This document shows, in pieces, positions 19,342 through 27,060 of a DNA stretch of 49,532 bases (positions are counted from its first letter, which is position 1; each line of letters begins with the position of its first letter). Source of the stretch: Candidatus Woesearchaeota archaeon (GTDB lineage Archaea > Nanobdellota > Nanobdellia > Woesearchaeales > GW2011-AR9). The notes below the pieces were generated by a model that was not told the DNA's origin, did no database searches, and worked only from the letters and a program-made list of their open reading frames with translations. The position numbers and the translations under genes were made by a program. The DNA is taken from positions 1-49,532 of the forward strand of contig JACRPH010000028.1 of the NCBI GenBank assembly GCA_016214025.1. The letters run 5' to 3'.

Positions 19342-19692
19342 TTAAAAAACAAAAGCGGAAGATAACCTTTTGTAAGCCAGCCAAATTTCGTTAATCAGTT
19401 CATCTTCCAAATCGATATCTTTATTTTCCTCCGCACATTCTCCGGCCAGAAGAATATTCAGCATTGAGGCTCCCCCCACATAGTAATCCTGCGGGCTTAA
19501 CTCGGCATCGTGAGCATCATCGGGCAGGGTAAGTATATATCGTATAGAATCACCTGCAATTATTTTTACTAACTCTGAAGCTTTATCTCCATCTACCATC
19601 CCTGTCAGGAACTTTAAAGTTCCGCTCCATCTTTCGTCGTCAATAGATTTAATCATGAGATACGACTCTCCCGTTTCATTATTTAAATTCAT
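19342..19692 (-). CDS. NACHT-tail family member 6 (short, most diverged)
   Basis: DERWSGTLKFLTGMVDGDKASELV motif near the N-terminus. Overlaps member 5 by 4 nt. Confidence 0.75.
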   Translation of the reverse strand: MNLNNETGESYLMIKSIDDERWSGTLKFLTGMVDGDKASELVKIIAGDSIRYILTLPDDAHDAELSPQDYYVGGASMLNILLAGECAEENKDIDLEDELINEIWLAYKRLSSAFVF

Positions 19693-20318
19693 AAATCCAT
19701 TCCTCCTAAATAATCCTCAAAACACAAATCTTCTAAAACCTCCAGAGCTCTCTGATCCCCCGTATATCCCATAATTTCCAAGCTAATGATAAAAGGCTCC
19801 CTCTGTGTCGGCATCAGAGATTTAAAAATTGCATCCCATACGGGTAAAGCATATATATCCTGTAGGTCATCCAGACTTTCAAATACTCCTTCAATATACC
19901 CCTTAAAAACTGTTGGTGTTAACTGTGCCCCCCCCAACTTAACCAAGCATTGTGGAGAAGGAATAGAAACTCTCCTCAAATCATAAGGGTTAATTGATGC
20001 CCAAATCCAGTCTTTAGCGGCTTCTCTAATAATAGCATTTTCACATTCAACGGCGATTTCTAAACGATTATTGTCAATCTTGTGCATATGAAAATATTGC
20101 TTTTGCATGAGGCATTCCTCTAACAAATGCGAGTGATTAAAAAAAGTCTTAAAGTCATAGTTCCCCTCTGAAAAATATCTTTTTCTAGCCTCTAAATAAC
20201 TTTTAGATATCTCTTCGATTAATTCCACTGCTTTCTCCTCATCCAGCATACCCGCTAGAAATTTCAGCGTTTCATTCCAGGCTGGCTTGATTAATCTTGC
20301 TTTTTCTGACATTTTCAA
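19689..20318 (-). CDS. NACHT-tail family member 5 (one C-terminal HEAT-like repeat)
   Basis: IKPAWNETLKFLAGMLDEEKA at the N-terminus and LEIMGYTGDQRALEVLEDL at the C-terminus. Confidence 0.85.
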   Translation of the reverse strand: MKMSEKARLIKPAWNETLKFLAGMLDEEKAVELIEEISKSYLEARKRYFSEGNYDFKTFFNHSHLLEECLMQKQYFHMHKIDNNRLEIAVECENAIIREAAKDWIWASINPYDLRRVSIPSPQCLVKLGGAQLTPTVFKGYIEGVFESLDDLQDIYALPVWDAIFKSLMPTQREPFIISLEIMGYTGDQRALEVLEDLCFEDYLGGMDL

Positions 20319-20347
20319 TAAATAGTCGGCTTCTTATTTATATTTCT

Positions 20348-23783: not shown

Positions 23784-25421
23784 TTAACTTATCACCCCAA
23801 ACTTATCCAGTTCTGAGGTTAACAGCTCAAACTTCTCTGTACCAATTACTTGTTTTATCTCTTTTAGTTCTTTCCGGTAGCTTTCTTCTAATTTGGTGGA
23901 GTGCTCCGGAATCTGCTCCAGCAGCTTTAAGCCGTGAGTTAAAACCATCACCCCATCTTTGAAGTTGCCTTTCTGGGCGTAATTGGATTTATTGATATAA
24001 TCAAAGCTCATTTGAATGGCTGCTGCTGCCCCCGGAAGATTTCCCGAATACAGCTCAGCTTCTCCCATCAGCAAATATATGTTAGCTAGCCCTTCCGGTG
24101 ATTTTGGGTTCAATTCTCCTTCCAAGCTCTTAGAGAGATAACGTTTCGCTTCATCAATCCTTTCCAGAGGAGAAAAATAATCTTTAGGCGCAACAACTTT
24201 CGACTGGCCTTTAAGTGCAGTTCTTACCATTTCTGCATTCCTAAGTATGCCTCTTGCCAGCTGGTAATTAGTCCAAGCAATTCCCTCCGGATTGTGAAGC
24301 TCTTCAAACAATCTTAATGTTTTCTTTCCGATATCATCATAATTACTTTGGTGGGTGCTCACACCATACAATAATTTATGATGCAAAGTCCATGCTTCAC
24401 CAACTTTGTCCTTTCTCTCTTCAGTGAAAATATGAAGTGATTTTTCCAGATAATCTTCTGCCTCTTTATTTCTTCCGTTTAAGAATGAGAAATAACCTAA
24501 CTTCTGGTAGTGCCAGCCTAAAAATTCTTTCATGTCGGGACTTACTTTTTCATAAGCAGTTGATGCTTTATCATAGTACTCCTGTGCTTTATCATATTCT
24601 CCCCTTCTCAAGTAGACGTTTCCTATTTCGTGCCAGGTCCAGCAGATGTCATAGGGATTATCTTTTCGTGTTTCTTCCACTGCGAAGAATAATTGGAGTG
24701 CGTGCTTATAATCACGCTGATACAGAAATACTTGCCCCCATTCGTGGCGGAATATTTTCGATGATGGAAATTCTCCTTTAGTCAGCTCCTGAATTAGTTT
24801 ATCTATTCCGCCATATTCAGCTCGAGAGATGGATATATTCAATAATCTCTGGTATGCCCGCTTTCGCTGGTCTTGGTCAGAATTATTCATTATTTCCGTG
24901 AGGCACTTCTGGGCAAAATCGTGGTTTCCCTGGAAGTAATGCTCTTCACATGAGGCAAGATTGGTTCCTTCCACTCTTAGCAATGCTTCTTCTTTCAGGG
25001 AGCTGTCGCGGTAGTACCACCATACCCCCGCCCCCAACCCCGCTGAAAGCACCAGCAAAGGAATGACGAATTGGGCTTTCCATTTGGACTTTTTAATATC
25101 GGGCATAGTCTTTTGGGTATATTCCAACATAAAATTCTGGGTCTTCTCGCTGAGATTTCTAAAGTGCTCTTTATTCATCAACTGCGGAACTTCGTCTAGC
25201 AAACGGGACAGTTTTTTCTTTCCAGAAAGGTTTTGGTCTGACATAATCCTGTATGCCAAGTCCATCTCGCCAAGCACCTCTGCGCTGATTGCACCATTAT
25301 TTTTTCTTTCAAAATAATTTCGCGAGGCTTCTTCTACTATTTCTTCCGCTTTGTCTTGGTTCACCATTCCGGCCAGGAATTCCAATGTGCCGTGCCAGGC
25401 GGGGTTGATTGGTTTAACCAT
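23784..25421 (-). CDS. NACHT-tail family member 2, single-pass membrane protein with TPR repeats
   Basis: INPAWHGTLEFLAGMVNQDKA, a hydrophobic segment FVIPLLVLSAGLGAGVWWYY, and TPRs such as HEIGNVYLRRGEYDKAQEYYDKA. Confidence 0.88.
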   Translation of the reverse strand: MVKPINPAWHGTLEFLAGMVNQDKAEEIVEEASRNYFERKNNGAISAEVLGEMDLAYRIMSDQNLSGKKKLSRLLDEVPQLMNKEHFRNLSEKTQNFMLEYTQKTMPDIKKSKWKAQFVIPLLVLSAGLGAGVWWYYRDSSLKEEALLRVEGTNLASCEEHYFQGNHDFAQKCLTEIMNNSDQDQRKRAYQRLLNISISRAEYGGIDKLIQELTKGEFPSSKIFRHEWGQVFLYQRDYKHALQLFFAVEETRKDNPYDICWTWHEIGNVYLRRGEYDKAQEYYDKASTAYEKVSPDMKEFLGWHYQKLGYFSFLNGRNKEAEDYLEKSLHIFTEERKDKVGEAWTLHHKLLYGVSTHQSNYDDIGKKTLRLFEELHNPEGIAWTNYQLARGILRNAEMVRTALKGQSKVVAPKDYFSPLERIDEAKRYLSKSLEGELNPKSPEGLANIYLLMGEAELYSGNLPGAAAAIQMSFDYINKSNYAQKGNFKDGVMVLTHGLKLLEQIPEHSTKLEESYRKELKEIKQVIGTEKFELLTSELDKFGVIS

Positions 25422-25425
25422 TTTG

Positions 25426-27060
25426 TTAAAAAGGAATATCTAATTCCTCCTCTTTCCTCCCAGCTCTAATCTCTTCCTTCAGCTCATCAATCCATGAAAG
25501 CTTATCTATGTCATCCAAGCGGTTAATTCTTCCCTCTAAGTTGCTTAAATACTTCGGATTTTGTTTAACAAAGCAGGTTAAGTATTCTCTTGCCTCAGTA
25601 CTGTTAATCATGCTTAGGGCATTAACCGCCGCGGATATGTTTAATTCATCATTCTCACGCTGGATATATTCAATGAGAGGATCAACTGCTCTAGTATCGC
25701 CAATTTTCCCAAAAGCGGGAATGGCGCAACCCCCTCCGGAATGACTGGAGTGGAGGAAATTAATCAAACTCTCCATTGCTGTAGAGCTACGAATTTCCCC
25801 CAGAGCGATAGCTGCATAGTAGCAATGGGGTTCTTCAGAAGAGAGATAGTTAATCAAGCTGTTCAGAGCATCTGGATCTGCTTTTTCTCTATCGTAACCC
25901 ATAATATCTCCCAAAGCTTTGGCAGCATAAAATCTCTCGGGATGGTTTGAGTTTAGAAGCTCAACTAAAGGTTTAACTGCCGGTTGCCCAATTTTTTCTA
26001 AGATCTCTACAATACAATCTTTCCTATGATAGGCTGCCCTTAAACTGGTGATTATCGGCACCCAGAGAGAATCATAATATTTGAGGTTTTTTATCTTATT
26101 TAAAGCAGAATCATATTTACCCGGGGTGTTGGATCGGAAAAGGTCAATCAGCAGATTGGTTATCTCCCCGCGGCTGCCTTTAACTTTTGGAGATAACCAA
26201 TATATACCGTTGTCTGATTCGGTTAAAGTATCGGCTATTTGGCAGCTGCTGTAAGAACCAGCAGTAAGTGCATGGATTAGCGGTTCAACCGATTCTTTCC
26301 TTTTCTTTATCAAATTTTTCTGTATACAATCACGCATTTCTCCTTCATGAATAGCCCCTGAATCAAATGAAAGTTTTTCTAGAAACTTAATCCAGTATTT
26401 TGGGTTAAGCGATTCTCCTAAGAGCAAAGCAAAATAAAATTCTTCCTCATCACTGGTTGAACTAAAAGAACTTTTTTCAAGTAAACCGATTACTTTCTCA
26501 GTTCTGTTTATGCCTTGTGACAAATCATATATAAACTTTGGACTGTATTTTTTTTTGCTGCCTTTCTCAAAACTTTTCTGAATCATCCAGATAATACTTT
26601 CAACTCCCTTATCGTTAAACTGCCCTTTCCGGAATGGTATCTGATCATGAAGCTTAAACTCCCAATCAAACCAGTAAAAGCGGTCAGAAATTTCATCTAC
26701 CCTCTCAGTTTTTTCTTTCAGGTTTAGATTACTGTTTAATATTAAAGCGATTATTTTGGCTATGCTCTTCCCTTCGAGTTCTCCAGGTATTTCTTGGCAA
26801 TCATCAATAAAATCATCTACACATCCATATTTTCCATAAAAAAGGATAGTACTATTTTCAGTAAGACATCTTGCGGTTAAACACATTGCATCAAGATAAT
26901 GGTTATTCCATTCTTTTGACGAATCTTCTCTCTTATTAAATTTCTCTTGAGTCGGTATTATCAGATTTAATTCTCCAAATAATCCAAGAAATTCTGTCTC
27001 ATCGAGCATTCCAGCTAGAAATTCCAAAGTTCCGTGCCAGGCGGGGTTGATTTGGTTCAT
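25426..27060 (-). CDS. NACHT-tail family member 1, HEAT repeat protein
   Basis: INPAWHGTLEFLAGMLDE ... MCLTARCLTE, then YAAKALGDI, AAIALGEIRS and AFGKIGDTRAVDPL HEAT repeats. GGTG RBS. Confidence 0.88.
   Translation of the reverse strand: MNQINPAWHGTLEFLAGMLDETEFLGLFGELNLIIPTQEKFNKREDSSKEWNNHYLDAMCLTARCLTENSTILFYGKYGCVDDFIDDCQEIPGELEGKSIAKIIALILNSNLNLKEKTERVDEISDRFYWFDWEFKLHDQIPFRKGQFNDKGVESIIWMIQKSFEKGSKKKYSPKFIYDLSQGINRTEKVIGLLEKSSFSSTSDEEEFYFALLLGESLNPKYWIKFLEKLSFDSGAIHEGEMRDCIQKNLIKKRKESVEPLIHALTAGSYSSCQIADTLTESDNGIYWLSPKVKGSRGEITNLLIDLFRSNTPGKYDSALNKIKNLKYYDSLWVPIITSLRAAYHRKDCIVEILEKIGQPAVKPLVELLNSNHPERFYAAKALGDIMGYDREKADPDALNSLINYLSSEEPHCYYAAIALGEIRSSTAMESLINFLHSSHSGGGCAIPAFGKIGDTRAVDPLIEYIQRENDELNISAAVNALSMINSTEAREYLTCFVKQNPKYLSNLEGRINRLDDIDKLSWIDELKEEIRAGRKEEELDIPF

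Follow-up and report, generated by a model that had tools for sequence, protein, structure and literature searches.

In a 49,532-nucleotide stretch of DNA from a Candidatus Woesearchaeota archaeon (contig JACRPH010000028.1; this whole stretch is referred to as the window), we find a gene array that can be read as a split NLR-like receptor of the NACHT clade of STAND proteins, with one short NACHT protein as its head and six separately encoded tails. The genes form a tightly packed run on the minus strand, in the order NACHT gene, gene for a 722-residue protein, HAD phosphatase, PRK/uridine-kinase-type kinase and six consecutive open reading frames (ORFs), m1 to m6. The products of these six share an N-terminal peptide, (I/V)(N/K)PxWxxTL(E/K)FLAGM(L/V)D, placed 3-26 codons past the start codon. 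This motif is conserved at the peptide level and is homologous to an internal segment of a single-chain protein, P0042; the layout recurs in other genomes, and every tail has a start codon of its own. We consider it probable, at roughly 0.65, that the tails are separately translated alternative C-terminal halves docking on the single NACHT head through the shared helix and the domain it opens, and that the shared head is what imposes purifying selection on the motif.

The conservation of the motif was seen first of all in its codons. m1 and m2 are identical over the 15 residues of INPAWHGTLEFLAGM and differ in five codons (GGA/GGC, ACT/ACA, TTT/TTC, CTA/CTG and GCT/GCC), each time synonymously (5/5; P = 5e-4 if changes are placed on sites at random), while m3 and m5 differ over KPAW..MLDE at five third positions, four of them synonymous and one, K/N, not (P = 0.01 in the same random-placement model). 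These codon tables reproduced exactly the counts given in a preliminary description of this DNA. That description had also proposed comparing the motif with the remainder of each gene, and Nei-Gojobori counts revealed a clear difference: among the six window tails the proportions of nonsynonymous and synonymous differences (pN and pS) were 0.16 and 0.70 in the 18-codon motif, 0.49 and 0.76 in the 55 codons after it, and 0.54 and 0.78 in the remainder of the genes, where both kinds of site are saturated. The same pattern was found in the array of another archaeal genome (locus L001; motif pS 0.73, pN 0.31) and in a block of tails of a second type, described below (L010; pS 0.60, pN 0.15). At the amino-acid level, identity among the window tails is 53-89% in the motif and mostly 8-30% elsewhere; values of 41-65% outside the motif occur only where the aligned remainder is short, mostly in pairs with the 116-residue m6.

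The motif is the start of something longer, as conservation runs about 70 residues beyond it (...LDE.KA.EL...I...YF......YNP.L.DL.LA..C). The earlier claim of purifying selection on a protein docking helix is therefore upheld in a refined form: selection on the peptide holds in three arrays, the helix is better described as the first of an N-domain of about 70 residues, and the docking is what we infer from the comparisons below. Between the window and orthologs in the archaeal metagenome-assembled genome (MAG) DeMMO3_35 (loci L005 and L006), the rate of nonsynonymous substitution (dN) was 0.07 in the motif and 0.64 in the rest for m2 and a 480-residue protein of L006, and 0.32 and 0.59 for m1 and a 421-residue protein of L005. 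Over whole genes the ratio of nonsynonymous to synonymous rates (dN/dS) for such pairs was 0.17-0.28. Since the tails are intact ORFs (116-655 codons), full-length relatives at 39-69% identity exist elsewhere for all but m3 (m1, m2, m4, m5 and m6), and dN/dS is low, we conclude that they are functional genes and, as had been proposed, not pseudogene relics.

Relatives of these proteins are few. Word-indexed homolog searches of 5.8e9 proteins were sparse, returning two matches for NACHT, two for the N-terminal profile and, for m3, HEAT-repeat matches only; the NACHT protein had one other relative at E <= 1e-5, 53% identical, in a Methanosarcinales MAG (L001/L007). There a 419-residue NACHT protein is followed by a 656-residue homolog of the 722-residue protein and then by 12 motif-starting genes. 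In DeMMO3_35 the order is a 398-residue NACHT protein, a 703-residue partner, a methyltransferase and tails, and two Hainich groundwater contigs (L013 and L014) hold parts of arrays close to that of the window. This split, which we call type A, thus recurs in L001/L007, in L005 together with L006, and in L013/L014; counting a second type of split, one head with many tails is found in four or more sources of type A and in three loci of type B, and head and tail array are linked in every locus where a contig spans both.

We then searched 1.84e9 representative proteins with a hidden Markov model (HMM) of the window tail N-termini (E <= 1e-3) and obtained 47 matches, almost all with the matching segment inside residues 1-90. 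In 40 of them the match starts within the first 30 residues, and these are stand-alone tails of 63-650 residues; in six it starts at residues 64-73 and in one, P0042, at residue 416. In P0042 (1209 residues, locus L008) the tail-type segment is internal: it spans 416-471, immediately behind a complete NACHT module and about 45 residues past the protein's own winged-helix motif. P0042 reads ...FAHPSIQEYFCAAQFADRIN...EMYDEYWSYEEKESIWGVGGRCLLPAWQNTIGFVAGLLDRDKAVELAELLSRDYL... across this region. BLASTP aligned the window NACHT protein to residues 62-391 of P0042 (E = 9e-21) and residues 7-65 of m3 to residues 413-471 (44% identity, E = 8e-13), and in a junction alignment the three short NACHT proteins end at ...EMYDEYWSYEEK of P0042 and the tails begin at ...RCLLPAWQNTIGFVAGLLD. 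By these alignments, head plus tail is colinear with an ordinary single-chain NACHT-HEAT protein, and the motif is the first conserved element past the split. Because NACHT and m3 align consecutively to P0042, each tail would supply an alternative C-terminal half to an NLR-like STAND protein that has been split. An in-frame fusion of NACHT and tail in DNA, which the preliminary description had named as evidence against its reading, has thus been found, but as an ordinary germline gene of another archaeon, and it explains the motif.

The head itself (431 residues, 30762..32057, minus strand) has the marks of a NACHT-clade STAND protein. The Walker B signature of NACHT proteins has been defined as D[GAS]hDE (10.1101/2022.07.19.500537), and the head combines such a Walker B (FDALDES) with a Walker A (AEPGFGKSS), a match to the Pfam NACHT profile PF05729 (score 32.2 bits, cutoff 26.7, E = 1.1e-7; 37.5 bits for the L006 head), the winged-helix histidine motif FLHKTIQEFLAG at residues ~381-392 (30882-30917) and a predicted NLR-like fold. 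The heads of the window, L001 and L006 all reach their stop codon about 39 residues past this winged-helix motif, leaving no repeat or sensor domain. The canonical NLR architecture, with NTPase and sensor repeats in one chain, is therefore absent from the window and is seen only in its relative P0042.

Six of the 47 HMM matches define the second split point. In these proteins the match lies at residues ~65-140, and the protein begins about 20 residues before an F.H..F.E..LA motif. For three of these proteins (P0038, P0044 and P0052) we looked at the locus. L009 (8085-15141) encodes a 636-residue STAND head followed by two type-B tails; L010 (4489-14794) a 744-residue head followed by at least seven tails, all starting MTLDSLL..FSHPSFREVLAARQFADEINSG and all ending ...YKPK; and L012 (7-5702) a head followed by at least five type-B tails. 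The type-B tails carry a winged-helix histidine segment that their heads are without, and none of these loci encodes a homolog of the 722-residue protein. Judged from the sequences, the layout of one head and many tails has come about, or been maintained, with the cut at two different places. As a type-B tail holds part of the winged-helix domain, this arrangement would be hard to account for without physical complementation. On the side, we observed that the type-B heads of 636-744 residues have a weak histidine-phosphatase-like region at the N-terminus, and that the last tail of L010 contains pentapeptide repeats.

In a six-frame peptide search of the whole 49.5-kb window, the motif was confined to the starts of m1-m6. 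The sole further match was a look-alike in the NACHT gene, FLHKTIQEFLAGK at 30882-30917, which is the winged-helix signature and distinct from the tail motif. We considered whether the tail motif is a copy of that signature, as both contain EFLAG, and rejected this: both motifs occur, spaced by about 45 residues, in P0042 and in every type-B tail, so the two are separate. The head signature HKTIQEFLAG and the tail sequence WHGTLEFLAG have T(I/L).EFLAG in common, a likeness that could be due to chance, convergence or an old internal helix duplication.

Structure prediction gave a compatible picture. A single-sequence AlphaFold2 prediction of P0042 was uninformative (predicted local distance difference test, pLDDT, 37). 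A virtual single-chain fusion of NACHT residues 36-431 with m5 (586 residues), modelled with AlphaFold2 from a 33-row alignment, reached a pLDDT of 70 and a predicted template-modelling score of 0.69. In the predicted fold PAWNETLKFLAGM is a helix (406-418) with two long helices after it, two 10-residue blocks over 411-430 have mean pLDDT values of 95 and 94, the highest in the model, and a beta-hairpin followed by a helix occurs at the winged-helix signature. The best Foldseek matches of the fusion model were NLRC4, NOD2 and NLRP3 (E ~1e-10, 500-570 columns aligned), with NAIP also among the best. As 500-570 columns exceed the 396-residue head, the NLR match runs past the head, which is consistent with the modelled tail N-domain standing in the position of the helical domain that follows the NLR winged-helix domain.

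In the arrangement that we propose, the nucleotide-binding, helical and winged-helix domains, with some 40 residues after them, would come from the head gene, and each of the six tails would join the helical N-domain (about 70 residues) to HEAT, TPR or other modules. The motif common to the tails would be the first helix of this N-domain, which normally follows the NACHT winged-helix domain. Each tail, translated on its own, would then bind the head non-covalently through helix and domain and so complete the receptor, such that one NTPase and one set of partner enzymes would be common to several alternative sensor modules; the motif would be under purifying selection because every tail must fit the same head. 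A head-tail complex is suggested indirectly by the colinearity with P0042, by the winged-helix part carried in type-B tails and by the confident helix of the model. Binding in trans, with one tail per head and with sensing by the repeats, would be the mode of action that we infer.

Several observations weigh against this proposal. In the pair formed by m4 and a 406-residue protein of L005, the motif is not more conserved than the rest (dN 0.19 in both). Conservation of the motif could serve the tail's own fold. The fusion model is one chain built on a shallow alignment with three distinct heads only and is thus supportive only. Rare rearrangements are compatible with the assembled contigs, and among the RNA runs in which we looked for the sequence of the locus, none contained it. 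As to a defence function, which is suggested by analogy, the PADLOC match of the head is weak (candidate family PDC-S60, E = 1.7e-9), as are those of the tails to HEAT-ARM_XIII.

Of the competing explanations, the one closest to the data is that the tails are independent HEAT/TPR paralogs left by an old gene fission, whose motif only stabilises their own N-domain and does not dock on the head. The motif does begin a conserved domain of about 70 residues and is not an isolated peptide, and selection for the tails' own fold would yield the same pattern of pN and pS. Set against this are the linkage of head and array, kept wherever one contig reaches both, the winged-helix histidine segment that type-B tails hold and the head is missing, and the conservation of a head that is without a sensor part; we therefore judge independent tails to be unlikely. 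A somewhat weaker candidate is docking of the tails on another shared partner, such as the 722-residue protein. This protein is conserved beside the head in three of three type-A loci and has a TPR-like segment; TPRs often bind short peptides, and the C-terminal peptide IHQRxKPxTY is common to many tails. The motif is nevertheless retained contiguous with NACHT in P0042, whose locus L008 is without a 722-residue homolog (the gene next to P0042 encodes a Pkinase protein in which no similarity to the 722-residue protein was detected), and the type-B loci are likewise without one. Because motif and partner come apart in these loci, docking on the 722-residue protein is weakened, and we give it little credence.

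The remaining two alternatives would join NACHT and tail covalently, and both are far less probable. One is that silent tail cassettes are recombined onto the 3' end of the NACHT gene, in the manner of orphan toxins or shufflons. The layout bears a superficial likeness to a main gene and an array of C-terminal cassettes with a common junction motif (cf. PMC3482391); traces of exchange also exist, in the form of a 31-nucleotide patch in L001 and a motif that changes subtype from m4 to its ortholog, both detailed below. The DNA tests oppose this. At the DNA level the motif is a 60-nucleotide repeat family of five copies with 70-82% identity and no copy in the NACHT gene, an absence noted in the preliminary description and on which a six-frame peptide search and a DNA repeat search both agree; with neither motif copy nor DNA homology in the NACHT gene, cassette switching onto it has no substrate. 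The synonymous sites of the motif are almost saturated, and no two window copies match exactly over more than 20 nucleotides. All tails lie in one orientation (minus strand), each with its own start codon, and a Pfam scan of window ORFs of at least 120 residues detected no recombinase, integrase or transposase domain, so the recombinase and inverted cassettes of a shufflon are both lacking. Furthermore, the unfused state is kept in three genomes, and four groundwater metagenome runs yielded contigs that are collinear and free of any NACHT-tail joint, at a level of assembly from which rare variants could escape. The earlier argument against cassette switching therefore stands, and we regard such switching as very improbable. 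Least probable of all is that trans-splicing, bulge-helix-bulge splicing or ribosome bypass makes NACHT-tail fusions at the RNA or translational level. Archaea splice some RNAs by the tRNA endonuclease and RtcB, and an RtcB gene is present in the window; nothing more direct was found in favour. With its synonymous sites saturated, the motif offers no scope for a conserved RNA structure, the gaps between tails measure only -4 to +29 nucleotides, and the structured element after the NACHT stop codon is a high-copy repeat that is missing from L001, where the genes overlap.

We also looked for signs of DNA homogenisation among the tails. At conserved residues the codons matched in 70 cases against 53 expected from window codon usage (pooled), and the best pairs reached P = 0.011, which is not significant after 15 tests; the excess fits residual shared ancestry rather than ongoing conversion. 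In L001, a 31-nucleotide exact run in the motif (15981-16060 versus 17473-17550; pS 0.13) joins two otherwise unrelated tails, of 279 residues and of 516 residues with TPRs, and may reflect gene conversion. The motif subtype of m4 (INPIWHNTLE) differs from that of its ortholog (IKPAWNETLK), which is of the m5 type. In addition, L013 has two extra tails, of 119 and 180 residues, between its m4-like and m5-like genes, and the 29-nucleotide spacer between m4 and m5 in the window (20319-20347) resembles the last codons, ...KYKPTTY*, of the 180-residue tail (L013 1490-1530), so that it looks like the relic of a tail gene lost from the window array. We tried to explain the difference between window and L013 as a deletion from motif to motif, and rejected this, as the breakpoints lie just after the m4 stop codon and ~25 nucleotides before the stop codon of the lost gene. 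The earlier suggestion that the 60-nucleotide homologies could drive expansion and contraction of the array holds in that array content differs between close relatives, but the only deletion mapped breaks outside the motif. Two contigs of run X1 departed from the window. One (depth 15, against 36 locally) skips 188 nucleotides (29223-29412) in a low-complexity, E/K-rich region of the 722-residue gene, and in the other (depth 3.7) position 24001 is followed, after 9 extra letters, by 18895; the two are either minor strain variants or assembly artefacts, and neither break is at a motif.

The tails differ in what follows the N-domain: m1, m3 and m4 have PBS-type HEAT repeats, m2 has a hydrophobic segment and TPRs, and m5 and m6 are short. 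All are on the minus strand. m1 (544 residues, 25426..27060) has its motif block at 26998-51, then the helical N-domain and the PBS-type HEAT repeats; GGTG stands 5 nucleotides upstream of its ATG, and its ortholog is P0023 (69% identity). m2 (545 residues, 23784..25421; motif block 25356-25409) contains the hydrophobic segment KAQFVIPLLVLSAGLGAGVWWYY, which is probably membrane-spanning, before its TPRs, and has full-length orthologs in L001 (516 residues, 39% identity) and L014. The first ~165 residues, including the hydrophobic segment, are common to m2, L006 7096-8538, L014 245-1609 and P0019; beyond that point the C-terminal parts are unrelated, with TPRs in m2 and a non-TPR domain in the L006, L014 and P0019 proteins, and the TPR and the non-TPR version are arranged in tandem in L014. 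The pattern suggests that modules have been swapped behind a shared N-terminal part.

m3 (650-655 residues, 21807..23774; motif block 23682-23735) has HEAT repeats and a C-terminal ...MNKPQTY, and relatives were found only for its N-terminal ~60 residues. m4 (485 residues, 20348..21805; motif block 21725-21778) has HEAT-like repeats and an ortholog in L005 (406 residues) with 53% identity by BLASTP without the motif, 68% over 403 MAFFT columns, and a dN/dS of 0.17. Inside m4, at 20646-21003, three tandem units of 114-126 nucleotides with 79% identity (a 114/126-nucleotide tandem repeat) encode ...ESL.QLESKYSSEI...; as the L005 ortholog is 79 residues shorter, this suggests variation of repeat number in the putative sensor part. 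m5 (207-209 residues, 19689..20318; motif block 20238-20291) has no recognised repeat domain, and its ortholog (P0015, in L013; 222 residues) is 55% identical. In m6 (116 residues, 19342..19692) the motif is divergent (RWSGTLKFLTGMVDG, block 19588-19641); the gene overlaps the stop codon of m5 as ATGA, is preceded by GGAGG as its Shine-Dalgarno sequence, and has an ortholog in P0033 (49% identity). A second peptide, ~(I/L)H(Q)RxKPx(T/G)Y, recurs in many tails at the C-terminal end or close to it; its carriers are m3 of the window (21807-21845), L005, L013, L010, P0013, P0016, P0018, P0022, P0041 and P0042.

Directly downstream of the NACHT gene lies the gene for the 722-residue partner protein (28465..30633, minus strand), which has a weak TPR-like stretch at its N-terminus. 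Homologs stand in the same position in L001 (656 residues, 51% identity) and L006 (703 residues, 43% identity). No Pfam family matched it above cutoff, and its Protein Data Bank (PDB) matches were TPR-like only, at residues ~110-195. We considered that it might be kinase-like, from its sequences YKDSSPRN and QLDFEK, and found this unsupported by BLASTP, hhalign, Pfam and a PDB profile search. The two genes that follow, both on the minus strand, are variable accessory genes: a HAD-family phosphatase of the Cof/S6PP type (27767..28468; Pfam Hydrolase_3, E = 7e-23), whose place is taken by a methyltransferase in L006 and by nothing in L001, and a P-loop kinase of the PRK/uridine-kinase family (27077..27757; Pfam PRK, E = 1.3e-11). 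In other genomes the genes beside the head include a Ser/Thr protein kinase (L008 7340-9082), an APH-type kinase (L001 8941-9891) and an HD-domain protein and a methyltransferase (L006 793-2007 and 5646-6581), and phosphotransfer enzymes recur among them.

Between the NACHT stop codon and the start of the 722-residue gene we observed an element of ~96 nucleotides (30657-30752) with two strong hairpins, TAGTAAATTGCA...TGCAATTTACTA and TAGCAAATCTCG...CGAGATTTGCTA (fold -35.5 kcal/mol, z = -7.6). It occurs at 5-7x the flank depth in metagenome contigs, next to many different adjoining sequences, is missing from L001, whose NACHT and partner genes overlap, and looks like a repeat of the miniature inverted-repeat transposable element or repetitive extragenic palindromic type; the intergenic hairpins had no Rfam match, and the element has no second copy in the window. 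At the other end of the run, a gene of the AbrB/MazE-PhoU type (18411..19337, plus strand; Pfam MazE_antitoxin and PhoU) converges on the end of the tail array. As a gene of this kind is also found at the array end in L009, L010 and L013, it may be a regulator of the system. The wider surroundings include a low-GC island (29-33% GC) with a DpnII-type restriction endonuclease and an N6/N4 DNA methylase, and several archaeal ATPase_2, BrxC-D-like and AAA_14-DUF4143 genes; these island, restriction-modification and ATPase stretches lie at 35915-37842, 17089-18294, 41291-42433, 45754-46830 and 48112-49422. The neighbourhood resembles a defence island, and, by analogy with NLR, Avs and bNACHT proteins, an antiviral or other conflict-sensing role may be proposed for the locus.

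NLR and STAND receptors are normally one polypeptide, with the sensor folded back on the NTPase. bNACHT and Avs proteins resemble the system described here in their NACHT module, with the D[GAS]hDE signature and winged-helix histidine, and in their HEAT/TPR C-terminal repeats of the 'antigen-receptor type', an architecture identical to that of P0042; here, in contrast, the receptor is divided between one head gene and at least six alternative tails that would be translated separately. bNACHT genes are reported to be mostly single and only rarely part of poorly conserved operons (10.1101/2022.07.19.500537). In the NAIP-NLRC4 inflammasome and in plant sensor/helper NLR networks, several sensors likewise feed one shared signalling NTPase, but there every partner is an entire NLR, equipped with a NACHT or NB-ARC domain, and the partners meet by oligomerisation, whereas the window tails are without an NTPase and would complete one head by fragment complementation; the likeness is one of functional analogy and not of membership.

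Polymorphic toxins such as CdiA and Rhs (PMC3482391) share with the window array a main gene followed by a same-strand array of C-terminal modules with a short common junction motif. Their main gene carries that motif, however, and DNA homology drives displacement, whereas here the motif is missing from the main gene, conservation does not extend to the DNA and each tail has a start codon of its own, so that neither hallmark of the class is seen. Effector-associated domains (EADs) of STAND and ternary conflict systems (PMC7159879) also link one NTPase to several neighbouring gene products by a short module. EAD pairing is homotypic; here the head is without a copy of the motif domain, so any head-tail contact would be heterotypic and would match the intramolecular interface of the fused protein. 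STAND-type proteins encoded as two adjacent genes have been considered before (methods for Avs7 and Dsr1, PMC13581612): this 2026 survey of antiviral STAND proteins mentions in passing that adjacent sequences were analysed for split proteins. In the open-access text that we searched, that of PMC13581612 included, no account of one head shared by an array of alternative halves came up.

All of the sequences come from uncultured archaea, and the family is small. At 47 clusters among 1.84 billion representative proteins it is rare, and it has probably been missed by single-gene NACHT surveys as a result. A more tentative extension, which we consider possible rather than likely, is that the locus encodes a combinatorial receptor of the innate-immune type, assembled at the level of protein, in which one head with its partner enzymes is completed in trans by any of 6-12 arrayed tails, each with a trigger of its own, and in which the repertoire turns over between strains; as the split occurs at two positions of the fold, including one inside the winged-helix domain, exchangeable sensors would be the property under selection. 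If the docking of alternative tails on one head is true, this would be a natural system with a single NTPase head common to an array of separately encoded sensor halves. It would offer a genetically tractable way to ask how sensors control NACHT activation, as tails could be swapped with the head untouched, and the conserved helix of 15-18 residues provides a handle for binding and mutational tests. For these archaea, it would mean that diversity of recognition can be had without duplication of whole receptors or rearrangement of DNA.

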